Positions 1,838 through 59,999 of a stretch of DNA of 64,000 bases are shown here, piece after piece. Below the pieces are notes generated by a model. It was given only the letters and a program-made list of their open reading frames with translations. It was not told where the DNA came from and searched no databases. The DNA lies in contig JBAQUS010000010.1 of assembly GCA_049297675.1 (NCBI GenBank), positions 6,781-70,780 of the forward strand. Reading direction: 5' to 3'. This stretch comes from Minisyncoccia bacterium (GTDB lineage Bacteria; Patescibacteriota; Minisyncoccia; Phycocordibacterales; DATDWN01). The stretch's first letter is position 1. Every line of letters starts with the position of its first letter. Made by a program: the position numbers and the translations under genes.

Positions 1838-3661
1838 ATGGATAACGATATAACATATTTTGCAGAAACTGATGCTAGAAATAAAAAAGTTAAATTTGGA
1901 ATAAAGGCCAAGGATAGATTAAAACATCTCTATGTTATTGGGAAAACAGGAATGGGAAAGTCTACCCTTCTTGAGAATATGGCCATTCAGGATATTCAAA
2001 GCGGAAACGGCTTGGCCGTTATTGATCCTCACGGAAGTATGGCCGAGAAGCTTTTGGATTATGTGCCAGAAAATAGAATAGACGATGTTTTGTATTTTGC
2101 TCCTTTTGATCTAGATTACCCAATTTCCTTTAACATTATGGAGGATGTTGGAGCTGACAAAAGGCACTTGGTAGTGGCGGGACTGATGGCCACATTTGAG
2201 AAGATTTGGGCCGATGCTTGGTCGGCAAGAATGGCATATATATTACAGAACACACTTTTAGCCCTCCTTGAATTTCCGGGAGCGACTCTTCTCGGTGTAA
2301 ACAGGATGTATACCGACAAGAATTTTCGAAATCAGGTAGTTGATAATATAAAGGATGTTGCTGTGCGCTCTTTTTGGGTTGATGAGTTTACAAAATATAC
2401 AGATAGATATACTCAGGAAGCGACGCCTGCAATACAGAACAAAATTGGTCAATTTGCTAGTAATCCTCTCATTAGAAACATTATCGGTCAGAGTAAATCA
2501 AGTTTTAATTTGAGAGACATAATGGATCAAAAAAAGATTCTTATAATGAATCTTTCAAAAGGTCTGGTCGGTGAGGGCAATGCCAAACTACTTGGCTCAA
2601 TGCTTATCACCAAAATTTACCTAGCTGCCATGAGTCGAGCTGACCTCAGTGCCAAAGAGATGATTTCAACTCCTAATTTTTATTTTTATGTTGATGAGTT
2701 TCAATCTTTCGCTAACAAATCATTTGCTGATATTTTATCTGAGGCCAGAAAATACAAACTCAATTTGACGATTGCTCACCAGTACATTGAGCAGATGGAA
2801 GAAGAGGTTCGGGATGCTGTTTTTGGAAACGTTGGAACAATGATTACTTTTAGAGTGGGAGCTTTTGATGCAGAAGTGTTAGAGAAAGAATTTTTCCCTA
2901 CATTTACTGCATCAGATTTGGTCAATCTTGGTTTTGCTCAAGTTTACTTGAAACTGATGATAGACGGAGTGTCATCTCAACCTTTTTCGGCTAGAACAAT
3001 TGCTCCAATACCTAAACCGGTAATTAGCTATAAAAATGCAGTAATAAAAAGTTCCAGAGATCAGTTCGGTCGTTCGAGAATAGATGTGGAGAAAGAAATA
3101 AATGAGTGGCATGGATCAAGTCCAGCAAGCACAAAAGAAGAGAAGCCTCAACAAAGAAGAGAATGGGATAGACCAAAGGAGTATCCAAAACCAAGTGATG
3201 GTGGAAGACCTAATCCACAGTTAGCTCAAGTTCTAACACAATTTACAAAACCTATTGAGCACAAAGAGAGCTTTCAAAAGCCAACAGAGGAGTTTAGAAA
3301 AAGAGAGACTTCTCCAAAACCAATTGCACCAGTGCATAACAATCCTAATCCAAACCAGACGGTTTCACTTTCAAATTTAAGTAGTATAAAAGACAATAAA
3401 AAACCGACAATGGAAGGCATATCCAGTTTAAAAGAAGCACTTTCTAAAGTAATAAATAAACCCAGAATTGAGCCCGAGACAAAACCAATAGTAAAACTTG
3501 AGGCAAAACCACTAGAGAGAAAAATTACCACAGAGAACAATAAAGATAATAGTAAAGATATGAAAGATCAGCAGAGAGAGAATGTTAAAAAAGAAACGCC
3601 TCCAAAAGAGGTCCCAGAAGAAGTTCTTAGGAAAATATTAAGCATGGATGGAAACAAATAG
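1838..3661 (+). CDS. FtsK/HerA-superfamily P-loop NTPase (TraD/VirD4 coupling-protein-like or DUF87/DUF853-like) with a ~200-aa Lys/Glu/Pro-rich low-complexity C-terminal tail
   Basis: Walker A (VIGKTGMGKST) is followed by VIDPHG, and a Walker B-like FYVDEFQSF is followed by IAHQ. There is no N-terminal TM segment. The C-terminus (about aa 400-607) is K/E/P-rich and predicted disordered. Confidence 0.5.
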   Translation: MDNDITYFAETDARNKKVKFGIKAKDRLKHLYVIGKTGMGKSTLLENMAIQDIQSGNGLAVIDPHGSMAEKLLDYVPENRIDDVLYFAPFDLDYPISFNIMEDVGADKRHLVVAGLMATFEKIWADAWSARMAYILQNTLLALLEFPGATLLGVNRMYTDKNFRNQVVDNIKDVAVRSFWVDEFTKYTDRYTQEATPAIQNKIGQFASNPLIRNIIGQSKSSFNLRDIMDQKKILIMNLSKGLVGEGNAKLLGSMLITKIYLAAMSRADLSAKEMISTPNFYFYVDEFQSFANKSFADILSEARKYKLNLTIAHQYIEQMEEEVRDAVFGNVGTMITFRVGAFDAEVLEKEFFPTFTASDLVNLGFAQVYLKLMIDGVSSQPFSARTIAPIPKPVISYKNAVIKSSRDQFGRSRIDVEKEINEWHGSSPASTKEEKPQQRREWDRPKEYPKPSDGGRPNPQLAQVLTQFTKPIEHKESFQKPTEEFRKRETSPKPIAPVHNNPNPNQTVSLSNLSSIKDNKKPTMEGISSLKEALSKVINKPRIEPETKPIVKLEAKPLERKITTENNKDNSKDMKDQQRENVKKETPPKEVPEEVLRKILSMDGNK

Positions 3662-4859
3662 AAATATGATGTACGAAGATCGAAGCACTAAAAGGAGAAT
3701 ATTAATTTTTTCGACAGCCTATTATCCTTTCATGGCAGGGGCCGAGATAGCAATAAAGGAAATAACAAATAGATTGTCGGAAGATTTTGAATTTGACTTG
3801 ATTACCGCAAAACTAGATAAAAATTTAAAAAGTTTTGAGAAAATTGGGGTAGTAAATGTCTATAGGTTGGGTTCTGGCAAGCCTATATTTGATAAATTTT
3901 TTTTACCTTTTCTTGGTGCAATTCGGGCATATAAACTTAGCAGGCAAAATAACTATTTTTGTCTTTGGGCGGTTATGATTACTTTTGCAAGTGGAGCTGG
4001 ATTTCTCTTAAATATTCTTAGATTCTTAACTGGAAAAAATAGAATCCCTATGGTTCTTTCACTTCAAGAAGGGGATTCAGAAAGCCACTTGAAATACAGA
4101 TGGGCAGGCTTAATCTCATTGTCGTGGCGCTTGGCTCTTAGTCAGACGGATATATTGACCGGATTAAGTAATTTTTTATTGAATAGAGCAAAAAAATATG
4201 GTTATAAAGGTGAGGCTGTTCTAGTTCCAAACGGCGTGGATTTATCAATTTTTTTAAATGAAGTTAGTCTGGATGATAAAAATTCACTTAAAGTAAAATT
4301 AGGTAAAAAAGATGAAGAAGTTTTTCTGGTCACAACAAGCAGACTTAACCACAAAAATGCAGTTGATGATATTATAAGAAGTTTAGTAAGTCTTCCGGAA
4401 AATATAACCTTGATTGTTATTGGAAAAGGTGAAGAAGGCCAAAGGCTTCAAAAACTGGCAGATGATTTGAAGGTAGCGCATAGGGTGAAATTTTTAGGTT
4501 TTTTGGATTATGAGGAATTACCAAAACATCTTTCAGTTTGTGATATTTTTATAAGACCCTCTCGTTCGGAAGGATTCGGAAATTCTTTCATAGAGGCGAT
4601 GGCAGTAGGGCTACCGGTTATAGGGACACCAGTTGGCGGTATACCTGATTTTCTTGACGATAAAGAAACTGGAGTTTTTTGCTCACCTGACAATCCGCAG
4701 AGCATTGCTATGGCAGTAAATTTAATTCTTTCGGACAGAGAGCTCCGAGAAAAAATAATTTATAACGCAAAAGACAGGGTTGTTGCCATGTATGGTTGGG
4801 ATCACATATCTCAAAAAATGAAAGGTCTTGCATTTGATAGATTGCTAAAATATGTATAG
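3648..4859 (+). CDS. Glycosyltransferase family 1 (GT4-type, GT-B fold)
   Basis: Carries the C-terminal GT1 signature EGFGNSFIEAMAVGLPVIGTPVGGIPDFL. The start overlaps the upstream gene by 14 nt, consistent with an operon. Confidence 0.8.
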   Translation: METNRNMMYEDRSTKRRILIFSTAYYPFMAGAEIAIKEITNRLSEDFEFDLITAKLDKNLKSFEKIGVVNVYRLGSGKPIFDKFFLPFLGAIRAYKLSRQNNYFCLWAVMITFASGAGFLLNILRFLTGKNRIPMVLSLQEGDSESHLKYRWAGLISLSWRLALSQTDILTGLSNFLLNRAKKYGYKGEAVLVPNGVDLSIFLNEVSLDDKNSLKVKLGKKDEEVFLVTTSRLNHKNAVDDIIRSLVSLPENITLIVIGKGEEGQRLQKLADDLKVAHRVKFLGFLDYEELPKHLSVCDIFIRPSRSEGFGNSFIEAMAVGLPVIGTPVGGIPDFLDDKETGVFCSPDNPQSIAMAVNLILSDRELREKIIYNAKDRVVAMYGWDHISQKMKGLAFDRLLKYV

Positions 4860-4991: not shown

Positions 4992-5999
4992 ATGAGAATT
5001 CTAATTACAACAGGTATATATCCACCAAAGGTAGGTGGTCCATCACAGTATGCCAAAAACTTATTTGAAGTCTGGCAAAAGGCGGGTCATGAAGTTTTAG
5101 TTCGAACTTACACTATTGAGAATAGTATACCTACTGGAATAAGACACATTTGGTTTTTTTTGAAAATTATTCCTGCAGTGTTAAAATCGGATTTTGTCCT
5201 AAGCCTTGATACTTATAGTGTTGGGTTTCCCTCTGTCTTTGCCTCAAAAATTTTTGGGAAAAAAGTAATGATTCGTACAGGAGGAGATTTTCTCTGGGAG
5301 AGCTATGTAGAAAGAACAAGAGAAAGAGTATTGTTTAGAAATTTCTACGAAGATAAAGCTGTCAAACTGAATCTTAAAGAAAAAGTTATTTTTTCTATCA
5401 CCAAGTGGACTTTGAAAAATGCTAATAAACTCATTTTTTCGACAAATTGGCAGAGGGACATTTTCGTTAAAGCTTACCAGTTGGATATAGAAAAAACATC
5501 TATTATAGAAAATTATTATGGCCAGAAAGAATCCAGTTTGGGTCCAAATTCTAAAGATTTTATAGCTTCGACTAGAAATTTGTATTGGAAAAATCTCGAT
5601 GTATTGAAAAAGATCTTCGTGAGAATTGTTCGCAAGAACTCGCAGGTAAAGCTTTACACTTTGAATACCGATTATGATTCATTTATGGAAAGGATGAGGG
5701 GTAGTTTTGCTGTTGTTCTTGTCTCACTTGGGGACATAAGTCCAAACATGATTCTCGATGCCATAAGACTAAATAAGCCTTTTATTTGCACAAAAGAAGT
5801 TGGGATTTTTGATAGAATAAAAGATGCCGGTATTTTTGTGGATCCACTGAATGAAAATGAAATTGAGGAGGCTGTTTTAAAACTACTCAATCCTGAGGAA
5901 TATTCAAAAGCTAAAGAGAAGGTCAAAAATTTTAATTTTACACATACATGGGAAGAGATTTGTAATGAATTCATAACAATTTATAATTCAATAGAATAA
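4992..5999 (+). CDS. Glycosyltransferase (GT-B, GT4-like N-terminal domain)
   Basis: The N-terminus MRILITTGIYPPKVGGPSQYAKNL is the typical GT4 N-terminal motif. The C-terminal half is only weakly GT1-like. Confidence 0.55.
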   Translation: MRILITTGIYPPKVGGPSQYAKNLFEVWQKAGHEVLVRTYTIENSIPTGIRHIWFFLKIIPAVLKSDFVLSLDTYSVGFPSVFASKIFGKKVMIRTGGDFLWESYVERTRERVLFRNFYEDKAVKLNLKEKVIFSITKWTLKNANKLIFSTNWQRDIFVKAYQLDIEKTSIIENYYGQKESSLGPNSKDFIASTRNLYWKNLDVLKKIFVRIVRKNSQVKLYTLNTDYDSFMERMRGSFAVVLVSLGDISPNMILDAIRLNKPFICTKEVGIFDRIKDAGIFVDPLNENEIEEAVLKLLNPEEYSKAKEKVKNFNFTHTWEEICNEFITIYNSIE

Positions 6000-6003
6000 A
6001 GGG

Positions 6004-7155
6004 ATGAAAGTCTTATCAATCGGAATGGATAGAAAGTTGTTTGAAGAGGGAAGTTCTGTTTTGGAGCGTTCAAAAGAATATGCCGAAAAAATGGAGGAGC
6101 TCCACATAGTTGTCTTTTCATTACAAAGACACAACCTTTTATACAAAAAATACCAAAATTTGCATATTTATCCGACAAATTCATATTCCAGGATCACTTT
6201 TTTGTTCGGGGCATACTTCCTCGGAAAGAAAATAATAGAGGAGAATAATTTTTTGACGAGTAGATCAATTATAACAGTCCAAGATCCTATGACCATAGTC
6301 GGATATTGCCTATCAAAGAAATTCAAACTTCCCATTCAGCTTCAGATTCACACTGATATATTCAACTCTAATTTTAAAAAATCTCTGATTGGATTTGGAA
6401 ATTTCTGGTATTCTGGGCTCGTTCAGGTTCCACTGACTACTTATTTTCTACCTAGAGTTTCTGGAATAAGAGTGGTTAGCCAATCGATCAAAGATTCTAT
6501 TTTGACTAAGTTTAGTTTTTTAGATAGAAAAATAGAAGTTTTACCAATATATGTCGATATAAATCATCTAATAAGTAGTTATCCAGGAAGGGATATAAAA
6601 AAGGATTTTCCTGGGTTCAACAGTATCATTCTTATGGCCTCTAGATTATCAAAAGAGAAAAGAATCGATATTGCTTTAAATTCCTTTAAGAAAGTATTGT
6701 CAAAGTTTCCACTGGCCGGATTGGTTATTTGTGGGGAGGGTCTTGAAAGAGAAAATCTCATAGTCAAAGCTAAGGAGTTAGATATTTCAAAAAGTGTCGT
6801 TTTTTTGCCTTGGCAGAGCGATCTCATGTCATACTATAAAACTTGCGATGTTTTTCTTCTTACTTCTGAGTATGAGGGGTACGGAATGACGCTTATAGAA
6901 GCTGGGGCATCGGGCTGTCCTGTAGTTACAACAAAGGTAGGTGTGGCTAACTCAAATCTTTTTGAGGATGGAAGAAATTCTTACGTTTGCGAAATCAACG
7001 ATACCGATTGTCTCTCTGAAAAAATTACCATATTATTAGATAACAATACCAAGAGAGACGATTTCAAGAGGAATTTGCAGAAAAACATAAAAAATTATTC
7101 AAAGACAAAAGAAGAGTATGTTGATCAATATGTTTCCTTACTTGAAAAACTTTAA
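6004..7155 (+). CDS. Glycosyltransferase family 1 (GT4-type)
   Basis: Carries the GT1 C-terminal signature SEYEGYGMTLIEAGASGCPVVTTKVG. Confidence 0.75.
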   Translation: MKVLSIGMDRKLFEEGSSVLERSKEYAEKMEELHIVVFSLQRHNLLYKKYQNLHIYPTNSYSRITFLFGAYFLGKKIIEENNFLTSRSIITVQDPMTIVGYCLSKKFKLPIQLQIHTDIFNSNFKKSLIGFGNFWYSGLVQVPLTTYFLPRVSGIRVVSQSIKDSILTKFSFLDRKIEVLPIYVDINHLISSYPGRDIKKDFPGFNSIILMASRLSKEKRIDIALNSFKKVLSKFPLAGLVICGEGLERENLIVKAKELDISKSVVFLPWQSDLMSYYKTCDVFLLTSEYEGYGMTLIEAGASGCPVVTTKVGVANSNLFEDGRNSYVCEINDTDCLSEKITILLDNNTKRDDFKRNLQKNIKNYSKTKEEYVDQYVSLLEKL

Positions 7156-7164: not shown

Positions 7165-7590
7165 ATGCATAAAAAAATATTTACTCTAGTTTTGGATGTT
7201 TTGGAGGAACACAAAATACTTAGATACATTATCTCTGGCGGTATGAGTGCTACGGTAAACATTTCTCTTTTCTCTCTATTTTTTTATATCTTTGATATTT
7301 ATTACATAATCTCAAACATTATGGCTTTTTCGGTAGCTTTTTTTGTCAGTTTGTTTTTACAAAAATTTTGGACATTTAGAGATCATTCAACAGAAAATAT
7401 GCACATTCAAGGGATGTATTATCTTCTCAACTCTCTTTTAGGTTTGGCAATAAACACCACAGTCCTTTATGTTTGTGTTGATTATTTGAAATTTATACCG
7501 ATTGTAGGAGTAATCATAGCTGGAATATGTACTGCTCTAGTAACATTTCAGATTTCTAGTAGATATGTGTTTAATAATAGCTTTAAATGA
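7165..7590 (+). CDS. GtrA-family small membrane protein (putative polyprenol-phosphate-sugar flippase)
   Basis: A 141-aa protein with four predicted TM segments. The N-terminal LRYIISGGMSATVNISLFSLF matches the GtrA-family pattern. Confidence 0.6.
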   Translation: MHKKIFTLVLDVLEEHKILRYIISGGMSATVNISLFSLFFYIFDIYYIISNIMAFSVAFFVSLFLQKFWTFRDHSTENMHIQGMYYLLNSLLGLAINTTVLYVCVDYLKFIPIVGVIIAGICTALVTFQISSRYVFNNSFK

Positions 7591-8786: not shown

Positions 8787-9449
8787 ATGTCACGAGTACC
8801 TAGAGTAGATATAGGAGATGAGATTTACCATGTTCTCAACAGAAGTAATGGTCGTGTAAAAATATTCAATAATGACAAAGACTACAAAAACTTTGTAGAT
8901 TTACTGATCGAGACAAAAGAGAAGTTTGATATGAGGATTCTTGCTTACTGTATAATGCCGAATCATTGGCATCTAGTTCTGTATCCAAAGAAAGACGGAG
9001 ATCTTTCAAAATTCATGCAATGGTTATCATTAACTCATACACAAAGATATCATGTTAAAACCGAGACTGTTGGATTTGGTCACCTGTACCAAGGAAGGTA
9101 TAAATCATTTTTAGTATCAAGAGACAACTATCTTCTCCAGGTTATTAGATATGTCGAACAAAATCCACTAAGGGCAAAAATTGTTAAAAGAGCTGAGGAT
9201 TGGAAGTGGGGAAGTGGGTTTAATAGATTTAATCCTTCAGAAAAAAACTTTGTTTCTGAATGTCCGATTGATCTACCAAACGATTATAGACAATGGTTAA
9301 ATGAGGTTCACGAAAAAGATGAATTAGAGAACATTAGACTGTCAGTAGAAAAGAGTAAACCATTTGGTACAATTAGTTGGGTAGATAAAATGGTCGAAAC
9401 TTTTAAATTGGGTTTAACCACAAGACTAAGAGGAAGACCCACGAAATAA
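8787..9449 (+). CDS. REP-associated tyrosine transposase (RAYT; IS200/IS605 TnpA-like HUH Y1 transposase)
   Basis: Has the HUH motif MPNHWHLVLYP and the C-terminal catalytic Tyr helix LLQVIRYVEQNPLRAKIV. It is about 220 aa, typical of the Y1_Tnp family. It is flanked by inverted REP copies at 8741-8758 and 9449-9467. Confidence 0.8.
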   Translation: MSRVPRVDIGDEIYHVLNRSNGRVKIFNNDKDYKNFVDLLIETKEKFDMRILAYCIMPNHWHLVLYPKKDGDLSKFMQWLSLTHTQRYHVKTETVGFGHLYQGRYKSFLVSRDNYLLQVIRYVEQNPLRAKIVKRAEDWKWGSGFNRFNPSEKNFVSECPIDLPNDYRQWLNEVHEKDELENIRLSVEKSKPFGTISWVDKMVETFKLGLTTRLRGRPTK

Positions 9450-10723: not shown

Positions 10724-10748
10724 GAATGATTACTTTTGTACAAAAAAT

Positions 10749-10766: not shown

Positions 10767-10772
10767 ATAGTA

Positions 10773-12475: not shown

Positions 12476-12477
12476 AT

Positions 12478-50994: not shown

Positions 50995-52567
50995 TGCAGA
51001 AAAGACTCTCAAAAAGACTTTTGACACAATACCTAAGGATTATATTGACGACATAATATTGGTTGACGATTGTTCTAAAGATAATACAGTTTCGTATTCT
51101 CGATCACTTGGGATCAAGACTTTTAGACATGATATAAATCTTGGTTATGGAGGCAATCAGAAAACATGTTACAGAGAAGCAATAAAGCTTGGAGCAGATA
51201 TAGTCGTTATGGTTCATCCAGATTTTCAGTATAATCCGGTTTATATTCCAGATATGATTAAACCGATTGCAGAAGGTAAAGCCGAAGCTGTTTTCGGTTC
51301 AAGAATGATTATAAAAGGTGGGGCAAGAAAAGGAGGTATGCCACTATGGAAGTATATAGCTAATATAACTCTTACAAAGATTGCAAATTTATTTTTGTGG
51401 CTAAACTTGAGTGAATATCATTCTGGTTTTAGGGCTTATAGTAAAAAAGCTCTAGAGACGATGCCTATTCAAACAAACTCAAACAATTTTGTTTTTGATG
51501 CTCAAATTATCGCCCAATTAAAGCAATTCAATTTAAATATCGCAGAAGTTCCTATTACCACGAAATATTTCCCAGGTGCCTCAATGATAGGTTTTTGGAA
51601 GAGTGTTGAGTACGGAATATCTATTCTTCTGGTACTTTCATTATATATTCTTCACAATATAGGATTAAGAAAATATAGAATTCTGTTGCCACCCGTTAAA
51701 TCTAAGTGTAGAATTTGTGATTCTGAGACAGCCCAGCTGATTTATAAAGAAAGCGAAGATTGGAACAATTCAAATAACAAGTTCAAATCCTATCGCATAA
51801 CTGACAGTATTCGATCGCATGGAAAGATTTTGAAATGTGTAAAGTGTGATTTAATTTATGTATCAGTTGATTCATCTCCTGATGTAGCAAAAATATATTC
51901 TGAGCAAGTAATTGATGATGAATATATAAAGGAAGAATTTGGCAGAAGAAAGCAATATAAAAAAATTGTTTCATTTTTAAAAAGCATTGGTTCATTTGGT
52001 GAGTTGGTCGATATAGGTTCTGGTCCAGGTTTCTTTTTAGATGAAGCTAAAAAAGCTGGGTTTAAGGTCTCCGGAATTGAGTCCGGGAAAGTTTGGGTAA
52101 ATTATGCTAAGGAAAAATTAAGACTAACCCAAGTCAGTCTAGGTAGTTTCGAAGATTTAACAAAATACCCAGATAATTATTTTTCTGTTATTACGGCGTG
52201 GGATGTTATTGAACATGTTGATTCGCCCAAGTTTTTTATGGAATTAATACACAAGAAATTAAAAGTTGGAGGAATTTTTGCACTATCAACCCCGATTATT
52301 GATAGTTTAGCATCACGTGTTTTAGGAGAGAGGTGGCATGCTGTTATTCCTTCTCACTTGACTTACTTTACCAGGAGCACATTACTCAATAATCTAAAGG
52401 ATGTCGGATTTGTTGTAAAGAGAACAAAGTTTTACACTAGATTTTTTTCTTTGCAATATTTATTCAACCGATTATTTAAAAAGACCAAGGACAGTTTTAT
52501 GAGAAAAATTGTGGTTCCAGTATCCCTGTTTGATGAAATAGAATTATATGTTATAAAAAAACATTAA
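50942..52567 (+). CDS. Bifunctional GT2 glycosyltransferase fused to C-terminal Zn-ribbon class I SAM methyltransferase
   Basis: The N-terminal half reads VVLPAYNAEKTL...VDDCSKDNT...VHPD (GT2). A C-terminal TM segment follows. Then come CRICDSE...CVKCDL (Zn ribbon) and LVDIGSGPGFFLDEAKKAGFKVSGIESG (SAM motif I). Confidence 0.7.
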   Translation: MSKLFPNKKIVVVLPAYNAEKTLKKTFDTIPKDYIDDIILVDDCSKDNTVSYSRSLGIKTFRHDINLGYGGNQKTCYREAIKLGADIVVMVHPDFQYNPVYIPDMIKPIAEGKAEAVFGSRMIIKGGARKGGMPLWKYIANITLTKIANLFLWLNLSEYHSGFRAYSKKALETMPIQTNSNNFVFDAQIIAQLKQFNLNIAEVPITTKYFPGASMIGFWKSVEYGISILLVLSLYILHNIGLRKYRILLPPVKSKCRICDSETAQLIYKESEDWNNSNNKFKSYRITDSIRSHGKILKCVKCDLIYVSVDSSPDVAKIYSEQVIDDEYIKEEFGRRKQYKKIVSFLKSIGSFGELVDIGSGPGFFLDEAKKAGFKVSGIESGKVWVNYAKEKLRLTQVSLGSFEDLTKYPDNYFSVITAWDVIEHVDSPKFFMELIHKKLKVGGIFALSTPIIDSLASRVLGERWHAVIPSHLTYFTRSTLLNNLKDVGFVVKRTKFYTRFFSLQYLFNRLFKKTKDSFMRKIVVPVSLFDEIELYVIKKH

Positions 52568-52749: not shown

Positions 52750-54213
52750 ATGAAAAAAATAACCAGCTTATTAACATCATTATTTTTATCAATCTTACTT
52801 CTTTTCCCAATAAATAGTGCAAATGCATTTATCTCTGATTGTAGCGGGGGTAGCGTAACTCATGCTGGAGGAAAAACTATACATACTTTTAATTCAAGCG
52901 ATATATTAGATTGTACTGGAACAAGTGGTGGGGCAGTTGATTATCTAATTGTTGGAGGGGGTGGGGGAGGATCTTATCAAGATAGTGGTGCCGGCGGAGG
53001 TGCCGGCGGAGTATTGGTGGGTAATGATTACGTATTAAATGCACAATCTTATTCAGTTGTTGTGGGTGGTGGGGGTGCTATATTTTCAAAAGGAAACGAC
53101 TCTGTCTTTGATGGAATGACTGCTTACGGAGGGGGTACTCCAGTTACAGGTGGTACTGGCGACGCTATTGGTGGTTCTGGAGCTGGTGGGGGTGGCGGTG
53201 ATATTCCTGGTGCAGGAATATCTGGTCAGGGACATTCAGGTGGTTATGGACACACTGGTAGTGGCGGTGCGTGTTCTGGTGATCCCTATTCTACTGGTGG
53301 AGGTGGTGGGGCAAGTTCGATTGGGGTTGCAGGGACATCTTCTGGTTCAGGTAATGGTGGCGATGGTATAATGAGTTCAATATCTGGATCAAATTCATAT
53401 TATGGCGGAGGAGGTGGCGGAGGAGCTGAAATTTTTAGGCAATGTAGCGGGGGAAATGGGACAGGTGGTTTGGGTGGTGGCGGTAATGGTGGAACTGCTC
53501 CAAATGGTGACACAGGTTCGACTGCAGGAAGCGTAAATACAGGTGGAGGTGGTGGGAATTTTCGTTCAGGAGGTTCAGGTGTAGTAATAATAAGTTATCC
53601 TTCACTTCCAACAATAATAGGCTTGGGTGTAACAAATAGATTAGCAAAGTTCTCAACGACTAATACTATAGCTAGTTCTCTCTTCTCTGATGATGGATTA
53701 AACATCACTCTAACTTCTGGAAATTTATTTATCTCAGGAGGATCATTATTTACACAATTTATTAATATACTAGCAGATGGTCTAGGTTTAGATACAAGTA
53801 CAGCAGGACTTCTTTCCATCGGCTCTACTACTGCGACTTCAATTAATATAGGCAGATCAGGTGTAACCACAACGATACTTGGGAAGACAAAATTATCAAA
53901 TATTGGCACAATCTCAAATTGTAACTCCGTAGCTTCTCCAGCGGTATGTGGATCTGCACCGTCAGGTAGTGTTACAATGTCTAAAGGTGGCAGTACTTTA
54001 ATAGTGAATACAACATCTGTAACTCCTGATAGCCAGATATTTATCATTGAAGACTCATCACTTGGTGTAAGATTGGGAATTACCTGTAACACCGCTACAA
54101 ATCGTACTTATACAATAAGTGCAAGAGTACCTAGTACAAGCTTTACAATAAAATCAAGTAACAATGTGAATGGTGCAAACAATGCATGTCTAAGTTACTT
54201 TATTGTGAATTAA
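52750..54213 (+). CDS. Secreted glycine-rich domain protein (Gly_rich-like) with conserved C-terminal Ser/Thr-rich domain; paralog B
   Basis: A signal peptide (MKKITSLLTSLFLSILLLFPINSANA) is followed by VDYLIVGGGGGGS, GGxGG tracts and GSGVVIISY. The C-terminal domain is shared with the paralog at 24231..25712 and ends CLSYFIVN. Confidence 0.75.
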   Translation: MKKITSLLTSLFLSILLLFPINSANAFISDCSGGSVTHAGGKTIHTFNSSDILDCTGTSGGAVDYLIVGGGGGGSYQDSGAGGGAGGVLVGNDYVLNAQSYSVVVGGGGAIFSKGNDSVFDGMTAYGGGTPVTGGTGDAIGGSGAGGGGGDIPGAGISGQGHSGGYGHTGSGGACSGDPYSTGGGGGASSIGVAGTSSGSGNGGDGIMSSISGSNSYYGGGGGGGAEIFRQCSGGNGTGGLGGGGNGGTAPNGDTGSTAGSVNTGGGGGNFRSGGSGVVIISYPSLPTIIGLGVTNRLAKFSTTNTIASSLFSDDGLNITLTSGNLFISGGSLFTQFINILADGLGLDTSTAGLLSIGSTTATSINIGRSGVTTTILGKTKLSNIGTISNCNSVASPAVCGSAPSGSVTMSKGGSTLIVNTTSVTPDSQIFIIEDSSLGVRLGITCNTATNRTYTISARVPSTSFTIKSSNNVNGANNACLSYFIVN

Positions 54214-54222: not shown

Positions 54223-55458
54223 ATGAAAATTGTTATTTTATCAGATGGTTTTCCTCCACTTGCCTTGGGTGGCGCGGAAGTCATTGCTAGAAATTTAGCA
54301 AAGGCTTTAGCGGAAAGAGGTCATGAGGTTTCGGTTATAACTTCTACAAAAGATATAAATGATGCAGGAAAGTTTACGGACGGAAAAATAAATATATACA
54401 AAATATATAGTGATTATTCTGATAGGTGGAGAGCTTACAGGAGTTTGTACAATTCAGGGGTTGTTCATAAGGTAGAGTCGATTTTGTCAAAAATAAAACC
54501 TGATATTGTTCATATTCATAATATTCATAAGCATCTGTCATATGCTTGCATTAATGTGGCAAAAAAATACTCGAGAGGGATTGTATTGACTGCACATGAT
54601 CTTATGCTTGTACATTACGGGAAATTAGGTGCACATGTAGGCAAAAACAATGAGGTTGAAGTGGACAAAATAAGTTTTTTGAGTCAAATAATGCAATACA
54701 AATTTAGATATAATCCATTTAGGAATTTTGTAATACGGTACTATCTTCGCAAAGTAGATAAGATTTTTGCTGTTAGTAGTGCATTGAAGAATATCTTAGA
54801 AAGAGAGGGTATCTCCGGAATAGAAGTTTTACATAACGGTATTAAGGTTTCGGATTGGATTATTGATAAAAGTAAATTAATTGATTTTAAAAATAAATAC
54901 GAACTCTCTGACAAAAAAGTTCTTTTTTTTGGTGGTCGTTTAACTGGGATAAAAGGGGGTATCGTTGCACTTCAAGTATTGGAAAAAGTGTTATCAAAAA
55001 TCGATAATGCAGTTTTGATTGTTGTAGGTCACAAGGATGATTGGGGGAAAGAGATGTTGGAGAAAACAAAAGATATGAGAATAGATAGAAAAGTCATCTT
55101 TACAGGGTGGATTCCCCATGAAGATATCCGTTATGCTTACGCTTCTTCGGATGTGGTGCTAGTTTTATCTAGGTATCTAGATCCATTTCCTACAATAAAT
55201 CTTGAGGCTATGGCTACAAGCAAAGCTGTAGTTGGTACAATTTTAGGTGGTACTCCAGAGGCAGTATTAGATAACAAGACAGGGTATATAGTTGATCCAA
55301 ATAATATTGAGTTGGTAAGTGAAAAAGTGTTAGATTTGCTGAGTGACATTGATAAATTAAAATCATTTGGACTTTCAGGTTTCAAGAGAGTTTCAAATAT
55401 TAATAACGAAGAGATTTGGGTAGATAAAACTATTTTATGCTATACTTCAGTACTTTAG
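54223..55458 (+). CDS. Glycosyltransferase family 1 (GT4-type)
   Basis: The N-terminus is MKIVILSDGFPPLALGGAEVIARNLAKALAERGHEV. The C-terminal region carries the GT1 E..A...PVV-type motif. Confidence 0.75.
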   Translation: MKIVILSDGFPPLALGGAEVIARNLAKALAERGHEVSVITSTKDINDAGKFTDGKINIYKIYSDYSDRWRAYRSLYNSGVVHKVESILSKIKPDIVHIHNIHKHLSYACINVAKKYSRGIVLTAHDLMLVHYGKLGAHVGKNNEVEVDKISFLSQIMQYKFRYNPFRNFVIRYYLRKVDKIFAVSSALKNILEREGISGIEVLHNGIKVSDWIIDKSKLIDFKNKYELSDKKVLFFGGRLTGIKGGIVALQVLEKVLSKIDNAVLIVVGHKDDWGKEMLEKTKDMRIDRKVIFTGWIPHEDIRYAYASSDVVLVLSRYLDPFPTINLEAMATSKAVVGTILGGTPEAVLDNKTGYIVDPNNIELVSEKVLDLLSDIDKLKSFGLSGFKRVSNINNEEIWVDKTILCYTSVL

Positions 55459-55468
55459 AGTAAATCTC

Positions 55469-56185
55469 ATGGCAAATGAAAGTACTATAGATTACTACGA
55501 TAATCAAAGCGGTCAATACTCCCAGAAACGTTACGAAGGGAAGACAGAGACTTATTTTCAATTTCTCTTTAAGAGAAGAAGGCAGATTTTTTTGGGTTTT
55601 ATAGCTAGTCTTGGTGATTTTAAGGATTTTAGACTATTTGAAATTGGTTGTGCTGATGGTGTTTTAATAAAAAAAATATTACAGAAAATGCCAAACAGTT
55701 TTAGTAAAATAGTTGGCATAGACATTTCTCCAAAAATGTTGGAGAAGGCGAGAGCTACTACGGCAGACTCGAGGGTCAGTTACTTTTTGAGAGGTGAAGA
55801 AGATTTTTCAATAAAATATAACCTTGTTCTTGAGGTGGGTGTACACGTCTCAGATCTTTTAACTGAGGTAAAATTTGTAAGTAACAAACTTTCTGTTGGT
55901 GGCTATTTTATATATTCTACTGCAGGCAAGAATTCCCTCCATGCAAGAATAAAACTAAGAGATAAGGATTATGCCAAAGAATATATAACTTATTTTAAAT
56001 GTGAAGAAATCTTAAACAGATATTTTGAGATAATCTCATCCCAAGGCTATGGTCTTTTCATTCCCAAACTTTGGGCGGTTCCGGCTTTGGCAAGAGTGGT
56101 CCAGCCGATTGCCGAAGCTTTATTTCGAAAAATACTTCCAAATCTATTTCATGAAAAAATTTATCTTCTAAGAAAGAAAAACTAG
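55469..56185 (+). CDS. Class I SAM-dependent methyltransferase
   Basis: Motif I is LFEIGCADGVLIKKIL, followed by IVGIDISPKMLEKA. Confidence 0.7.
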   Translation: MANESTIDYYDNQSGQYSQKRYEGKTETYFQFLFKRRRQIFLGFIASLGDFKDFRLFEIGCADGVLIKKILQKMPNSFSKIVGIDISPKMLEKARATTADSRVSYFLRGEEDFSIKYNLVLEVGVHVSDLLTEVKFVSNKLSVGGYFIYSTAGKNSLHARIKLRDKDYAKEYITYFKCEEILNRYFEIISSQGYGLFIPKLWAVPALARVVQPIAEALFRKILPNLFHEKIYLLRKKN

Positions 56186-56190: not shown

Positions 56191-56309
56191 TCCCGTTAGA
56201 AATCACTCGGTTATATTTAGAGAAAAAATGTATATTTAAAAAATCAGTGACTTTATATATATTATTCACCTAAACTACGGAAACAATAGGTTTCCTATCT
56301 CTAACGGGA
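56191..56309. repeat. MITE-like palindromic element, family 1 copy c (diverged interior)
   Basis: Has the terminal IRs tcccgttagaaatc and gatctctaacggga, matching the termini of the copies at 4877 and 13555. The interior is unrelated. The right terminus encodes the last codons and the stop (…LSR*) of the minus-strand Wzx gene. Confidence 0.55.
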
Positions 56310-57569
56310 TAGATCCTCCTTGTGTGTCGCGAAGAAGTAGTAGTTTACTAAAAGCATGATGAGCCAAGAGATGCCGTTTTCTATGACTGCACCTTTTAGT
56401 CCGAAATTGTAAATAAGCACAAAAGTTAGGGCAATAGTTATCAGGTTGCTAATTGTAGTTAGTTTGTACATTGTCTTTGCGTCTTTCTTTATCTGGAAAT
56501 AGATGCCAAAGAGTGATATGCCAGGAATAGCTATGAGTCCGAGCATGTAGATCTGTGAGTAAATAACTGCCTCGGTGTATTTGGGAAAGAAAAGCTCAAA
56601 GACAAATGGAGCTAAGACAATGTACACGGCAACAATGACAATTGTTATTAATGTAAGTTGCCATGTTTTCTTCATGATGCTACTTCGGAGGTTCGCTTCA
56701 TCCAACACAGCATATTTTGGAAGAGCAATGTTAAAGAGATTTTTATAGCTACCTTTTATTTGTTCAGGTATTGCTTGTGAAAAGGCATATATTGCCAAGT
56801 TAGCCGCACCAAGATAATGAAAGACTAAAATTTTGTCTAGCTGGTTTGCTAAACTGTTAAAGAAATTCATAAAGCTGACATGTTTGCCGTAAGAAAGGAA
56901 AGAATCATCTGTTTCCGTGTTGGGACGATATTTTGAGATTACATGAAAATAAGACCATGTGGCTGATCCCGCACTCAAAACAAAATATACTGCAACTAGA
57001 GATAAGACACTCTCAGAGAAAAGGGCTATAGCGATTATCCCCATGTTTAGAAGAAGTTGAGAAAAAATCCAGTAAACTGTGCTCAGCTTAAAATTTTTCT
57101 TTCCTGAAAAATATGTGCCGTATAATCCATATGAGTTTATAATCGGTAAGCAAACTGAAGCTATGGCAAAAGAAAATCCAAGAACTTTGTTTCCATTTAG
57201 AAGATAGTAGATAGACATACTTAAACCTACTAAAACCATAATAAAGCTCCATTTAAATGATAGAGAAACGGTTTTTCTAAGCATTCCTTCTTTTCCCTTA
57301 GCAATTGCTTGAGTTAATACGTTCGGCATTCCCGTTAAGGAAAGTGTTCCGAGGATGCCAATTGCTGAGAGTATAAATTTATACTGACCGTAAAAATCTT
57401 TTGAAACAAAGTTTGCAAAAAAGACAGACAGTCCGAATGCCATTACCACGGCTGAAATTTGCCCTACAGTCATCCAGAAACCACTTTTCGCAACATAAGC
57501 CATGTCGGTTTCGAAATAGTTTCCTAGCCAGTTTATGGCGTAGAGCCTCTTATCTTTGAGCTTTTGCAT
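56301..57569 (-). CDS. Wzx-like oligosaccharide/polysaccharide flippase (MOP superfamily, Polysacc_synt)
   Basis: 422 aa with about 12 TM helices. The N-terminal KSGFWMTVGQISAVVMAFGLSVFFANFVSKDFYGQYKFILSAIGILG is typical of Wzx. Confidence 0.65.
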   Translation of the reverse strand: MQKLKDKRLYAINWLGNYFETDMAYVAKSGFWMTVGQISAVVMAFGLSVFFANFVSKDFYGQYKFILSAIGILGTLSLTGMPNVLTQAIAKGKEGMLRKTVSLSFKWSFIMVLVGLSMSIYYLLNGNKVLGFSFAIASVCLPIINSYGLYGTYFSGKKNFKLSTVYWIFSQLLLNMGIIAIALFSESVLSLVAVYFVLSAGSATWSYFHVISKYRPNTETDDSFLSYGKHVSFMNFFNSLANQLDKILVFHYLGAANLAIYAFSQAIPEQIKGSYKNLFNIALPKYAVLDEANLRSSIMKKTWQLTLITIVIVAVYIVLAPFVFELFFPKYTEAVIYSQIYMLGLIAIPGISLFGIYFQIKKDAKTMYKLTTISNLITIALTFVLIYNFGLKGAVIENGISWLIMLLVNYYFFATHKEDLSR

Positions 57570-57610: not shown

Positions 57611-57780
57611 ATTATAAAACTCGACGAAAATACATGTTTTCTGGCGTATCTCGGAGAGCGTGAAGCTCAAGAGTTAAGGAAAATTTTCAGCCCGCCCGTA
57701 CCCGAACGGTACGTTCGGGCGGGCAGAAAATTATTCCGGCGCCAGAAAATATGTGTTGAGTAAGAGTTTTGTAGTTCGCG
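57611..57780. repeat. MITE-like palindromic element, family 2 copy B, carrying a 34-bp G+C-rich perfect-palindrome insertion
   Basis: The copy is co-linear with 43064-43199. An extra gcccgcccgtacccgaacggtacgttcgggcgggc lies at about 57690-57724. Its nested perfect stems are gcccgcccg/cgggcgggc and cccgaacg/cgttcggg with loop gta. The G+C content there is strikingly above the local level. Confidence 0.65.
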
Positions 57781-57806
57781 ATTTACTAGCTTGTGGGAAT
57801 ACCATT

Positions 57807-57815
57807 TGCTATACT
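57807..57815 (+). promoter_or_regulatory. Candidate extended -10 promoter element (TGCTATACT) giving a leaderless transcript for the ligase-like gene
   Basis: tgctatact at 57807-57815 has a TGn-TATACT architecture. The ATG at 57822 lies 7 nt downstream, and there is no Shine-Dalgarno. Confidence 0.3.
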
Positions 57816-57821
57816 CGACCC

Positions 57822-59999
57822 ATGAAAAATACAAAAAAAATACTTGAATATTTAATTATAAGCGGTTTGTTTTTATTGCCATTTATTCCTTTTATTGTTC
57901 CATCAAATTTCTTTTTCCCTTTTATTACAGGCAAAGGTTTTGCTTTCAGAATTTTGGTAGAAATTTTGTTCGGGCTTTTTGTCATACTTTGCTTTGTAGA
58001 TAAAGAATATAGACCAAATTTTTCGTGGATTACTAAATCCGTTTTACTTTTCACTTTCGTTACTTTTGTCGCAGATATTTTTGGTGAGAATCCTTACAAA
58101 AGCATGTGGAGTAACTTCGAAAGAATGGAAGGATTTGTCCTCATAGCTCACCTCTGTCTTTTTTATCTGGTTATATCTTCATTTATTAAACAGAAGAAAA
58201 AATGGCATCAATATATTAACCTAACCATAGGAGCAAGTGTCCTCATGTCCGTCTATTCACTTTTTCAGCTAGCAGGTAAGTTAAACATAAATCAAGGAGG
58301 AGTTCGTGTTGATGCTACGTTTGGAAACGCCACATACATGGCTATTTACGTTGTTTTTCATATATTCTTGTCTCTTTATATGCTTACAGAGAAAGAGAGC
58401 AAGAAATGGCAAAAATGGACGTATGGTGGCATTATCCTTCTCGAAACCACCATACTCTATTTCACAGCAACTAGAGGGGCAATCTTGGGGTTAATAGGAG
58501 GTGTTCTCCTTACAGGACTTATTCTTCTTTTCAAAGATAGAGGTAACGCACATTTGAGAAAAATTTCTTATTCTATCTTGGGATTGGTAGTGGCTATTGT
58601 GCTCATTTTTATTTCTGTAAAAGATACAGGTTATGTAAAAACAAGTCCAGTTCTCTCGAGATTTTCCTCACTTAGTTTTTCTGAAATAAAAACTCAGGGC
58701 AGATATTTTGTTTGGCCAATGGCAGTAAAGGGGGTTATCGAGCGACCGATTTTGGGTTGGGGACAGGAGAATTTTAACTTTGTCTTTAATAAAAATTACG
58801 ATCCAAGAATGTGGAATCAAGAACAGTGGTTTGATAGGACTCACAATGTTTTTCTCGATTGGCTTATCGCTGGAGGTCTCTTAGGTTTTCTGTCTTATGC
58901 CAGTATGTATTTGGCGCTCTTCTACTATATCTGGAGAAAGAAAACCGATCTGACAGTTCTTGAGAGGAGTGTTCTGACAGGGATGATATCGGCATATATT
59001 TTCCACAATATATTCGTATTCGACAATCTCATAAGTTACATAATGTTCTTTACTGTCTTGGGTTATATTCATGCCATTTCTACCCATGACGAACCTCGGT
59101 ATCATAAATTCCATTCTCTAAATTTCTCACACGATACAGTAAACTATGTTGTCTTTCCCACTGTTCTGGTGGCTACGATCGGGATGATTTACTTTGTAAA
59201 TATTCCTGCTATTTCTGCAAATATTAATCTAATCAAAGCTTTAACCCCGAGTGGTAATTATGAAAAGAATCTTGAGCTATTTAAAAAAGCATACAGTTAT
59301 AACTCCTTAGCTGATTCAGAAATAACAGAGCAGATTGTGACATCGGCGATTCAAGCAATAGGTACCCAGGGTGTCGATAATAAAATTAAAAATGATTTTT
59401 ACAATCTCGCTAAAACCCAAATTGAGAAGAAAATAAATAAAGTCCCAAATGATGCAAGGTATCTCGTTTTCGCTGGGAGTTTTTTCAACAGAGTAGGGCA
59501 GTTTGATGAGGCAATAAAGTATCTGGATATGGCAGTTAAAGAATCACCTAGAAAGCAATCAATTTTATTTGAGCTCGGTTCTTCATACATAGGCAAAGGA
59601 GATTTACCAAAAATGTTTGAAATGTTTAAGAAAGCATACGAACTTGAACCAAGCTCAAACGAGGCTTTAGCTTTGTATGCAGTTGGGGCAATATATACTA
59701 AAAATATTGCCGTACTTAAAGAACTACAATCAAAAATAAGTACTGAAGACCTCATTAAAGACGATAGATTTTTGAGGGCATATAGTGAGATAGGGGATTA
59801 TCAAACAGTCCTGACAATACTAAATGCCAGACTAGAAAAGGATCCAAAGAATCCTCAAAATAATTTACTTCTTGCTTCCACTTATGCTTCGCTTGGTCAA
59901 AAACAAAAAGCAATAGAAATTATTCAAAAAATAATAAATGAAAATCCTAGCTTCAAAGCACAAGGGGAAGGGTATATAAAAGAGATCGAATCAAGATAG
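57822..59999 (+). CDS. O-antigen ligase-like (Wzy_C domain) polytopic membrane protein fused to C-terminal TPR repeats
   Basis: TRGAILGLIGGVLLTGL and FVWPMAVKGVIERPILGWGQENFNFVF match the Wzy_C/O-antigen ligase signature. The C-terminal roughly 250 aa form TPR-like repeats (YLDMAVKESPRKQSILFELGSSYIGKGDLPKMFEMFKKAYELEPSS...). The track starts at 57753 within the repeat element; the ATG at 57822 is preferred. Confidence 0.65.
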   Translation: MKNTKKILEYLIISGLFLLPFIPFIVPSNFFFPFITGKGFAFRILVEILFGLFVILCFVDKEYRPNFSWITKSVLLFTFVTFVADIFGENPYKSMWSNFERMEGFVLIAHLCLFYLVISSFIKQKKKWHQYINLTIGASVLMSVYSLFQLAGKLNINQGGVRVDATFGNATYMAIYVVFHIFLSLYMLTEKESKKWQKWTYGGIILLETTILYFTATRGAILGLIGGVLLTGLILLFKDRGNAHLRKISYSILGLVVAIVLIFISVKDTGYVKTSPVLSRFSSLSFSEIKTQGRYFVWPMAVKGVIERPILGWGQENFNFVFNKNYDPRMWNQEQWFDRTHNVFLDWLIAGGLLGFLSYASMYLALFYYIWRKKTDLTVLERSVLTGMISAYIFHNIFVFDNLISYIMFFTVLGYIHAISTHDEPRYHKFHSLNFSHDTVNYVVFPTVLVATIGMIYFVNIPAISANINLIKALTPSGNYEKNLELFKKAYSYNSLADSEITEQIVTSAIQAIGTQGVDNKIKNDFYNLAKTQIEKKINKVPNDARYLVFAGSFFNRVGQFDEAIKYLDMAVKESPRKQSILFELGSSYIGKGDLPKMFEMFKKAYELEPSSNEALALYAVGAIYTKNIAVLKELQSKISTEDLIKDDRFLRAYSEIGDYQTVLTILNARLEKDPKNPQNNLLLASTYASLGQKQKAIEIIQKIINENPSFKAQGEGYIKEIESR

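Follow-up and report, generated by a model that had tools for sequence, protein, structure and literature searches.

A variable surface-glycan island beside a conserved wzx/wzy_C-TPR gene pair in a Paceibacteria genome

What do the members of a lineage of ultra-small symbionts build with some forty glycan-related genes standing side by side, and to which acceptor are the products attached? This question is raised by a 64,000-nucleotide stretch of DNA (hereafter, the window; contig JBAQUS010000010.1 of assembly GCA_049297675.1, positions 6,781 to 70,780) from a metagenome-assembled genome of the Paceibacteria ("Minisyncoccia"), within the candidate phyla radiation (CPR)/Patescibacteria. Bacteria of this group depend on surface contact with their hosts. 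A sequence-only reading of the window had proposed that it encodes a complete system for surface-protein glycosylation, built around a guanosine diphosphate (GDP)-heptose pathway. We found that the region is a variable surface-glycan island at a conserved site. It ends in a divergent pair of genes, one for a Wzx-type flippase and one for a protein that joins a Wzy_C domain to C-terminal tetratricopeptide repeats (Wzy_C-TPR); in related genomes this pair is then followed by secA. O-linked protein glycosylation through the Wzy_C-TPR protein is, in our view, the best single explanation of the island, with a probability that falls just short of even.

A conserved gene pair at the border of the island

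All open reading frames (ORFs) of at least 100 amino acids (aa) in the window were compared with the Pfam families, and the key ones also with NCBIfam. These scans assigned to glycan metabolism about 40 of the 50 genes located between 3.6 and 60 kb, a density far beyond chance. The glycan-gene ensemble described from the sequence is therefore real and lies where it had been placed, and the interpretation of the region as a surface-glycan biosynthesis island with a nucleoside diphosphate (NDP)-heptose pathway holds. The same gene strings are present in three sequencing runs (SRR28011830, SRR28011701 and SRR28011690) and in the assembly GCA_049296155.1. It was an overstatement that essentially every plus-strand gene is glycan-related: this strand also carries a transglutaminase-like gene, an IS200-type transposase gene, a TPR protein gene, an AbiEii gene, a NUDIX-like gene and the genes for two glycine-rich proteins, and further exceptions are a NYN-domain gene on the minus strand and the genes for a transaldolase and a transketolase. 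The window has a GC content of ~33% and a strong bias towards the plus strand. None of the components of the island is of a new kind; the novelty lies in recognising the class-wide syntenic anchor wzx/wzy_C-TPR/secA, the fibre-like proteins embedded in the island and a putative GT-C-like family for which Pfam has no model.

The gene that anchors the island occupies positions 57822–59999 of the plus strand, within an ORF of 57753–59999. Its actual start is the ATG at 57822, which yields a protein of 725 aa. The Wzy_C-TPR family comprises more than 5000 detectable members, the top 120 of which are all ~725 aa long and 57–70% identical. Its members are encoded in at least 589 species-representative genomes, at 43–70% identity over the full length. 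The close relatives all come from metagenome-assembled genomes of Parcubacteria/Paceibacteria, including Zambryskibacteria, Kaiserbacteria, Taylorbacteria and similar groups. The wzx gene (56301–57569, minus strand; Polysacc_synt, 80.9 bits) is divergently oriented with respect to it.

Gene order was compared across 80 related loci with up to 10 kb of flanking sequence on either side of the wzy_C-TPR gene. Downstream of this gene, secA was found in 52 loci at a median distance of 3.0 kb, that is, in essentially all loci with enough downstream sequence, and dsbB in 29. A divergent wzx gene precedes it in 32 of the 80, and the same layout was apparent in the contigs of three relatives that were viewed directly. 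None of the other window genes was recovered in more than 21 loci, and their identities there, mostly 25–40%, are at the level of paralogues. Heptose genes are found near the anchor in a single locus (L083), a string of YfhO, two GT4 and methyltransferase genes is common to the window and one other locus (L023), and the glycan genes upstream of the anchor differ in almost every genome. In the comparison with relatives that had been proposed as a check, the anchor pair and secA recur more often than the glycan genes upstream of them. The heptose operon is one of several modules, and the view that the system was built around it finds no support.

The degree of conservation was also compared gene by gene, using one reference genome against 52 genomes. 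The median identity was 51.6% for Wzy_C-TPR (55.9% for its membrane domain and 43.1% for the TPR part), 55.0% for DsbB, 52.1% for MYG1, 70.1% for SecA and 37.3% for Wzx. Wzy_C-TPR is therefore no polymerase tied to one locus but a core gene of the whole lineage, which evolves at the pace of housekeeping genes. Wzy polymerases that join repeat units normally co-vary with their glycan and are counted among the genes that diverge most in such loci; a conserved Wzy_C-TPR gene beside a turnover of glycan genes therefore argues against a classical Wzy. The high sequence divergence between loci that marks such a polymerase was not seen, nor was a Wzz/polysaccharide co-polymerase (PCP) companion among the window ORFs. 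Such a pattern would be produced by a transferase specific for the lipid carrier and for an acceptor that is itself conserved, be it protein or non-protein. Side chains that vary on a constant backbone would, however, look the same, as they too would leave the enzyme constant while the neighbouring glycan genes vary.

Some taxonomic labels attached to the relatives are at odds with this distribution. One 8.9-kb contig with a 64%-identical wzy_C-TPR gene (locus L012, JBEBJM010000018.1) has been binned as Nitrospira, and many loci lie on TPA contigs labelled 'uncultured Candidatus Saccharibacteria' though their genes group with Paceibacteria. Both are likely to reflect mis-binning or generic labelling.

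The Wzy_C-TPR protein and its possible acceptors

The Wzy_C domain (PF04932) was recognised with 74.6 bits (cut-off 31.7) at residues 229–382 of the 748-aa ORF. In the AlphaFold2 model of the protein (pLDDT 85, pTM 0.81), 13 long helices extend to residue 474, with a loop of residues 267–342 between helices 9 and 10, and TPR repeats continue to the C-terminus. Given the basic N-terminus (MKNTKK), which is probably cytoplasmic, and the odd number of helices, the TPR domain and the 267–342 loop are both predicted to be on the outer side of the membrane. Across 36 Wzy_C-TPR sequences the residues R218, R280, R294, D338, R339 and H341, the last three within the motif DRTHNVFLDW, are invariant and lie in or around this large outer loop; much of the TPR domain is also conserved.

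The closest solved fold is that of the ligase WaaL (PDB 7TPG and 7TPJ), at a sequence identity of 13–15%. WaaL and Wzy_C-TPR share the Pfam domain, each has conserved Arg and His residues in its outer loops, and the Wzy_C-TPR protein has a WaaL-like polytopic fold with a large extracytoplasmic loop bearing such residues. WaaL differs in that it lacks the 13th membrane helix and the 250-residue external TPR domain. The acceptor of WaaL appears to be absent from the lineage, which is reported to have no lipid A/lipopolysaccharide genes; a published Parcubacterium genome lacks lpxC and kdsA, and the window itself contains no lipopolysaccharide genes. Searches of NCBIfam with the membrane domain gave a weak match to the IctB family only, and the full-length sequence matched TPR proteins only in the PDB. 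Taken with the conservation in so many species and the architecture discussed next, the fold and the predicted external TPR domain make Wzy_C-TPR a credible candidate for an O-oligosaccharyltransferase, as the sequence-only reading had suggested.

Which known systems does such a protein resemble? A review on the glycosylation of S-layers attributes a Wzy_C domain to WsaB and WsfB and a C-terminal TPR motif to WsfB and PglL, which are known or predicted protein O-oligosaccharyltransferases; it also places a gene for a TPR protein beside wsaB and an asnB homologue in the slg locus of Paenibacillus alvei. The slg loci of P. alvei and Geobacillus stearothermophilus are like the island in having a monoderm host, a Wzy_C enzyme as predicted final transferase, an asnB homologue, methyltransferase activity and a nucleotide-sugar pathway. 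In G. stearothermophilus the acceptor protein is encoded beside the cluster, and the window too holds candidate acceptors. The two differ in that G. stearothermophilus exports its glycan by an ATP-binding cassette (ABC) transporter, whereas the window has Wzx; in the window there is no recognisable S-layer protein or S-layer homology domain, and there are many additional GtrB/GT-C modules. Moreover, Wzy_C-TPR is a syntenic core gene of the class and not part of a strain-specific cluster, and its likeness to WsfB and PglL is one of architecture.

The general O-glycosylation cluster of Tannerella forsythia, as published, spans 27 kb and contains wzx, a sugar pathway, five glycosyltransferases, three methyltransferases, asnB and a sugar dehydrogenase; asnB and wecC lead to ManNAcCONH2, and the borders are conserved while the content is species-specific. 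The oligosaccharyltransferase of Bacteroidota was still unidentified in that work. The island shares with this cluster the same gene classes, including the uronamide set, and the combination of conserved borders with a species-specific glycan. Both the Bacteroidota and the PglL systems differ from it in operating in diderm hosts with transfer in the periplasm, and the island is known from its genes alone. PglL of Neisseria, Burkholderia and Acinetobacter is, like Wzy_C-TPR, a Wzy_C enzyme, and has relaxed glycan specificity. By its parts list, the window is as good a match to these protein-glycosylation clusters as to a polysaccharide locus.

If O-linked protein glycosylation is indeed the function of the island, two cooperating routes could be envisaged. 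In the first, eight to ten cytoplasmic GT-B glycosyltransferases would assemble an oligosaccharide on polyprenyl pyrophosphate from NDP-D-glycero-alpha-D-manno-heptose and from a uronic acid that an AsnB-like enzyme probably amidates, and O-methyl groups would be contributed by five methyltransferase domains. Wzx would then flip the lipid-linked glycan and Wzy_C-TPR would transfer it en bloc outside the membrane. In the second route, DPM1/GtrB-type synthases would produce polyprenyl-phosphate monosaccharides, a GtrA-family protein would flip them, and GT-C-type enzymes (PMT_2, YfhO-like and the family lacking a Pfam model) would add single sugars outside the cell. Heptose might travel by this second route, given the GtrB-like gene at the start of its operon and the two membrane protein genes at the end. 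We infer that protein is the acceptor, that the steps occur in this order and that both routes act on one product. Most likely, Wzy_C-TPR is a glycan-promiscuous ligase or O-oligosaccharyltransferase acting on secreted or surface proteins, the outcome of which would be general O-glycosylation with a strain-variable glycan.

The candidate acceptors that had been said to bracket the island do exist. Two paralogous genes, at 24231–25712 and 52750–54213 on the plus strand, encode secreted glycine-rich proteins with Sec signal peptides, a Gly_rich_2 head, a serine/threonine (S/T)-rich stalk and a conserved C-terminal beta-sandwich; their C-terminal 214 aa are 73% identical. Relatives in the databases retain the C-terminal ~200 residues (~50% identical) beneath a Gly_rich_2, SPRY or LamG head, or no head at all. 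Three relatives in other genomes (loci L008, L009 and L010 at 10001–11650) are all located inside glycan clusters, which differ in content (fucosyltransferases, FdtA, DegT, C-methyltransferases, an ABC exporter), and one of the three lies 10 kb upstream of a wzx/wzy_C-TPR pair. The glycine-rich proteins are thus fibre-like secreted proteins that are functionally tied to glycan islands.

AlphaFold2 modelled the head and the last 100 residues of the glycine-rich protein with confidence, while the 100-residue S/T-rich stalk scored below 50 in pLDDT. The C-terminal module is a tailspike-like beta-sandwich with four invariant cysteines. In fold comparisons, the head resembled a cyanophage fibre and the glycine-rich domain of ALK/LTK, and the tail resembled C-terminal domains of phage tailspikes and depolymerases, all at E >1e-3; a sub-threshold match to the Pfam family K1-lyase_C agrees with the latter. 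We regard the tailspike/fibre likeness, which comes from predicted models, as a lead rather than a classification.

A third candidate, a giant S/T-rich protein, is encoded from 61303 on the plus strand and runs past the window end at 64000, and therefore lies outside the range originally given for the island. It consists of an HTH_17-like N-terminal segment, one membrane helix and a long region rich in S, T, G and N, with S and T making up ~32% after residue 230. No similarity to the glycine-rich proteins or to the pilin was found. Homologues of its N-terminal part are located 10–11 kb downstream of the anchor in 16 loci (L029, L030, L038, L045 and L046 among them), past the secA block; in the present genome the gene follows wzy_C-TPR directly, and the secA block consequently appears to be displaced. 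Between the two genes, positions 60000–61300 form a 1.3-kb AT-rich segment (~30% GC) with no ORF of at least 60 aa and no match in Rfam. The fourth candidate, a type IV pilin with an N_methyl motif (997–1464), has no homologue in the flanks (up to 10 kb) of the 80 loci, and no linkage to the system is evident.

Several observations weigh against protein O-glycosylation by Wzy_C-TPR. A sequence profile of the Wzy_C membrane domain retrieved no PDB sequence even at E=10, and the literature searched for Patescibacteria protein glycosylation and O-antigen ligases yielded no evidence of glycoproteins in this organism or lineage. None of the 80 loci has a homologue of the glycine-rich proteins in its flanks of up to 10 kb, and these proteins could equally be lectin-like glycan partners or adhesins as acceptors. 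The window encodes no priming phosphoglycosyltransferase of the Bac_transf or MraY/WecA families, and the system can therefore not be called complete. This absence is not decisive, since priming genes are often encoded elsewhere, as is Escherichia coli wecA, which lies outside the O-antigen clusters. The TPR domain is not specific to protein acceptors, because such domains are also described in polysaccharide export scaffolds, in a paper cited by the S-layer review. Finally, the substrate that the conserved Wzy_C enzyme polymerises or ligates could be a constant backbone bearing variable side chains.

The last two points lead to a different interpretation, which we consider quite possible: the island would be an ordinary Wzx/Wzy locus for a cell-wall or capsular heteropolysaccharide, with Wzy_C-TPR as the backbone polymerase or as a ligase to peptidoglycan or a membrane glycolipid. 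In that case strain-specific side-chain sugars would come from the GtrB/GtrA/GT-C modules, and the S/T-rich proteins would be encoded nearby without being related to the locus. Many glycosyltransferases together with Wzx and Wzy_C are indeed the canonical layout of a polysaccharide locus, and variable decoration of a conserved backbone would likewise account for a conserved Wzy_C gene beside variable ones. Characterised GT-A/GtrA/GT-C systems of monoderm bacteria mostly decorate lipoteichoic acid, wall teichoic acid and rhamnose polysaccharides, and a review of such systems likewise gives teichoic acids and wall polysaccharides as the acceptors of YfhO and of most PMT_2 proteins, which again counts against a protein acceptor. 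On the other hand, Pfam scans of the window ORFs detected no Wzz/PCP, no LCP ligase and no ABC exporter, and neither in the window nor in the 80 loci does a Wzz/PCP, an LCP ligase or a conserved backbone-type glycosyltransferase accompany the anchor. Housekeeping-level conservation in at least 589 species is unlike Wzy polymerases, and the closest solved fold is that of a ligase. To our knowledge, there is no precedent for a Wzy_C enzyme that ligates to peptidoglycan.

A broader form of the protein-glycosylation proposal is possible, if less likely than not. It holds that general protein O-glycosylation is a feature of the class Paceibacteria, with a 13-helix Wzy_C/external-TPR oligosaccharyltransferase encoded beside secA, a hypervariable island upstream of it, and phage-fibre-like acceptors with an S/T-rich C-terminal module and swappable lectin-like heads. 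Were it true, a strain-variable glycoprotein coat would be the main surface identity of these ultra-small symbionts, a likely phage target and a likely determinant of host attachment. If the polysaccharide interpretation is correct instead, the region is a polysaccharide locus of common type, though a large one. The conserved Wzy_C-TPR gene beside a hypervariable island offers a clonable handle on the choice between protein glycosylation and wall polymer, and the island predicts mass signatures for metaproteomes, namely heptose, methyl-sugars and uronamide. The cell envelope of CPR/Patescibacteria has been described as unclear. The island had been judged unusual for a small genome; equivalent islands are typical of the lineage, and the Parcubacterium genome mentioned above was already reported to encode 20 glycosyltransferases, for which its authors raised glycoproteins or a glycosylated S-layer as a possibility.

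Sugar pathways and glycosyltransferases of the island

The heptose operon extends from 25758 to 39219 on the plus strand, with adjacent genes separated by gaps of 0–54 nt or overlapping. In what follows, single coordinates denote gene starts. The operon opens with a methyltransferase (25758) and a GtrB-like GT2 (26636; the two genes span 25758–27565), followed by a sugar-1-phosphate nucleotidyltransferase (27570–28259) and a GHMP kinase of the HddA type, a D-glycero-D-manno-heptose-7-phosphate kinase (28288–29307). Next come a short-chain dehydrogenase/reductase (SDR; 29307), a GFO/IDH/MocA oxidoreductase (30124), an extended SDR epimerase/dehydratase (31109) and an NDP-sugar 6-dehydrogenase (32262), together spanning 29307–33539. 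The sedoheptulose-7-phosphate isomerase GmhA (33562), a GmhB-type HAD phosphatase (34148) and a transaldolase (34769) occupy 33562–35503, and two polytopic membrane proteins (35523–37475 and 37441–39219) close the operon. In the extended SDR (31109–32260), an insertion of ~40 residues splits the Pfam match into two and holds a CxxH...CPRC pattern, possibly a zinc ribbon.

The kinase and isomerase of the heptose pathway are identified with good support. The best NCBIfam family of the kinase is HddA, with 153 bits (cut-off 600), and its best PDB relatives are heptose-7-phosphate kinases (3k85, 4n3o and 4usk; E from 1e-37 to 1e-39), fucokinase being next at 1e-16. GmhA matched best to TIGR00441 (gmhA), with 97 bits against an equivalog cut-off of 209, and all 13 of its 13 best PDB matches are phosphoheptose isomerases. 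The phosphatase matched best to the GmhB equivalog (103 bits, cut-off 178) and exceeded the cut-off only for generic models of HAD-IIIA and histidinol-phosphatase domains. That the scores of the heptose enzymes fall below the equivalog cut-offs is to be expected of a deep lineage. For the nucleotidyltransferase, HddC models scored 52–54 bits, no better than RmlA, GlmU N-terminal domains and mannose-1-phosphate guanylyltransferases (all 52–62 bits); its position in the operon supports heptose-1-phosphate as the substrate. The combination of a GHMP kinase with an RmlA-fold transferase points to the alpha-anomer route, which in known cases leads to GDP-heptose, and by this analogy the donor nucleotide would be GDP. 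Of the full GDP-heptose pathway that had been announced, the four-enzyme NDP-heptose operon with its kinase and isomerase thus stands, and GDP would follow from the type of pathway. The GmhA/HddA/GmhB/HddC route to GDP-D-glycero-alpha-D-manno-heptose was reportedly first described for an S-layer glycan, and the S-layer glycan of Aneurinibacillus thermoaerophilus contains a sugar derived from GDP-heptose.

Not all sugars of the island need be heptoses. The NDP-sugar 6-dehydrogenase of the operon scored above the cut-off (TIGR03026, 303.6 bits). An AsnB-type glutamine amidotransferase is encoded at 20825–22684 (plus strand), its best match being the amidotransferase family of the XrtA/PEP-CTERM system (577 bits), and is a candidate for an enzyme that amidates a uronic acid. 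The dehydrogenase and the AsnB-like enzyme together suggest a uronamide sugar; given the parallel with the T. forsythia cluster, the enzymes described as tailoring the heptose need not all act on it. Several SDR and GFO oxidoreductases/epimerases are also present. [quoted passage not shown]

The earlier count of at least nine GT-B enzymes is reached if sub-threshold matches are included. Seven scored above the Glycos_transf_1 cut-off (3648, 6004, 10773, 12478, 18012, 48441 and 54223), and an eighth, the GT47/exostosin-like protein at 15549, exceeded the cut-off of its own family, while those at 4992 and 13670 are sub-threshold. Four proteins resembling polyprenyl-phosphate-sugar synthases were likewise recovered: a short, DPM1-like GT2 without membrane helix at 19119, and three GtrB/ArnC/PgfS-like GT2s (19876, 26636 and 42090) with two C-terminal membrane helices apparent from the sequence, which match the ArnC/PgfS families end to end with 141–232 bits. 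A fifth GT2, at 50942, is fused to a methyltransferase. The GtrA flippase, Wzx and the Wzy_C-TPR fusion were all confirmed by Pfam. Five S-adenosylmethionine-dependent methyltransferase domains were detected, one fewer than had been counted; they are located at 14654, 25758, 45215, in the C-terminal half of 50942 and at 55469.

The five proteins assigned to the GT-C fold fared unequally. Only the one at 16585 exceeded a Pfam cut-off (PMT_2, 50.3 bits). The protein at 46159 has no Pfam match of its own; a relative with a YfhO match aligns with it from end to end at 61% identity. The protein at 37441–39219 belongs to a large family without a Pfam model, with 1415 cluster representatives at E ≤1e-3. 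Its relatives are naturally fused to an N-terminal Glycos_transf_2 domain (four cases, one of them 50% identical), to GtrA or to LPG_synthase_TM. These domain fusions, of the Rosetta-stone kind, point to a membrane partner of polyprenyl-phosphate-sugar synthase/flippase systems, and the family is probably an undescribed, putative group of GT-C-like transferases. For the remaining two the GT-C assignment is unproven: 49564–50994 has a sub-threshold match to PMT_2, and the 650-aa protein at 35523 has only three homologues among 5.8 billion proteins. The latter is not a demonstrated GT-C, as its similarity to the PMT_2 protein fades from E 1e-7 to 0.019 when BLAST is adjusted for composition; one distant homologue has a sub-threshold match to DUF2298.

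Such proteins recall the multi-component transmembrane glycosylation systems (CsbB/GtrB with GtcA/GtrA and YfhO or PMT_2), whose reviewed acceptors are teichoic acids and wall polysaccharides, and the streptococcal GT-A/GT-C systems (Pgf, GtrB/PgtC2), which have been reported to glycosylate S/T-rich extracytoplasmic regions of proteins. The parts of such a system (membrane-anchored GT2s, the GtrA and Wzx flippases and the PMT_2 protein) are present in the window, and the island is predicted to hold three or four such modules. The likeness extends to the three membrane-anchored GT2s, one of them closest to PgfS, to GtrA, and to the YfhO-like, PMT_2 and Pfam-less transferases; an epimerase gene also adjoins the PgfS-like gene, and S/T-rich secreted proteins are encoded nearby. 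The island differs from these systems in that several modules share one island, one of them within an NDP-heptose operon, and in that the matches are below the NCBIfam equivalog cut-offs. By analogy, GtrB/GtrA/GT-C modules alone could glycosylate cell-wall polymers or S/T-rich protein regions, a second route to which the sequence-only reading gave too little weight.

Gene flux and interrupting genes

A third interpretation, which we consider improbable, treats the region as a hotspot of gene flux where independent glycan pathways with different acceptors have accumulated (NDP-heptose/GT-C decoration, two or three other GtrB/GT-C modules and a GT4/Wzx set), Wzy_C-TPR and secA being a mere conserved border. 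In its favour, the island is broken by an IS200/Y1-type transposase gene (8787–9449), an AbiEii toxin gene (23380) with the preceding 195-aa ORF (22803), a NYN-domain gene (11906–12385, minus strand) and a NUDIX-like gene in a patch of deviating GC content, and such mobile and defence genes agree with a flux of genes here. Almost every genome has its own set of genes near the anchor, the heptose operon forms a unit in itself, and a transketolase gene is found in the same orientation near the anchor of two other loci, which suggests that backbone genes are interleaved with the island. Set against this are the strand bias and tight spacing over 56 kb, which suggest co-ordinated expression, the joint action of these gene classes on one glycan in O-glycosylation clusters already described, and the presence of a single GtrA and a single Wzx to serve all modules. 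A mobile-element or prophage origin of the whole island, prompted by a TraG-like ATPase, the IS200-type transposase and the tailspike-like domains, was rejected because equivalent islands occupy the same chromosomal site in many genomes. Scans of the window for tRNA genes and with Rfam returned no matches, and the signature of a tRNA-flanked island is accordingly absent.

The glycan genes outside the heptose operon are arranged in a series of short blocks, on the plus strand unless stated otherwise. The first consists of three GT-B genes of the GT4 type (3648–4859, 4992–5999 and 6004–7155), of which the first and third match Glycos_transf_1 with 146 and 123 bits, and of a gene for a small GtrA-family membrane protein (7165–7590), a putative polyprenyl-phosphate-sugar flippase (GtrA_DPMS_TM, 73.7 bits; cut-off 26.1). 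The second block (10773–19118), broken up by the NYN-domain gene, encodes a GT4 (10773), a GT1-like protein (12478), the weak GT-B (13670), a methyltransferase (14654), the GT47/exostosin-like protein (15549), the PMT_2 GT-C (16585) and another GT4 (18012). It is followed by the DPM1-like GT2 (19119–19823) and a GtrB/ArnC-like GT2 (19876–20823), the latter matching the ArnC-type family NF007986 with 198.7 bits, below its equivalog cut-off. ORF 22803, which has no family match, is probably the AbiEi partner of the AbiEii gene, the two spanning 22803–24093.

Downstream of the heptose operon, the minus strand carries genes for an RmlD-like reductase (39282–40232) and a split transketolase (40229–41981). 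The PgfS/GtrB-like GT2 gene (42090–43052; PgfS family NF047588, 231.5 bits) lies next to an SDR epimerase/dehydratase gene on the minus strand (43208–44152). The block at 45215–52567 encodes a methyltransferase (45215), the YfhO-like GT-C (46159), a GT4 (48441), the polytopic protein with a weak PMT_2 match (49564–50994) and the GT2-methyltransferase fusion (50942), and the last block (54223–56185) a GT4 (54223) and a methyltransferase (55469).

Two further observations concern the neighbours of these blocks. Positions 44174–45185 have a GC content of 43% in a 33% GC genome and contain the weak NUDIX-like gene (44520–45101) together with overlapping, unsupported minus-strand ORFs; the patch looks like a foreign insertion within the island. 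At the opposite end, just downstream of the pilin gene, a TraG/VirD4-like coupling ATPase with a long tail rich in K, P and E is encoded at 1838–3661, and its gene overlaps the first GT4 gene of the island by 14 nt.

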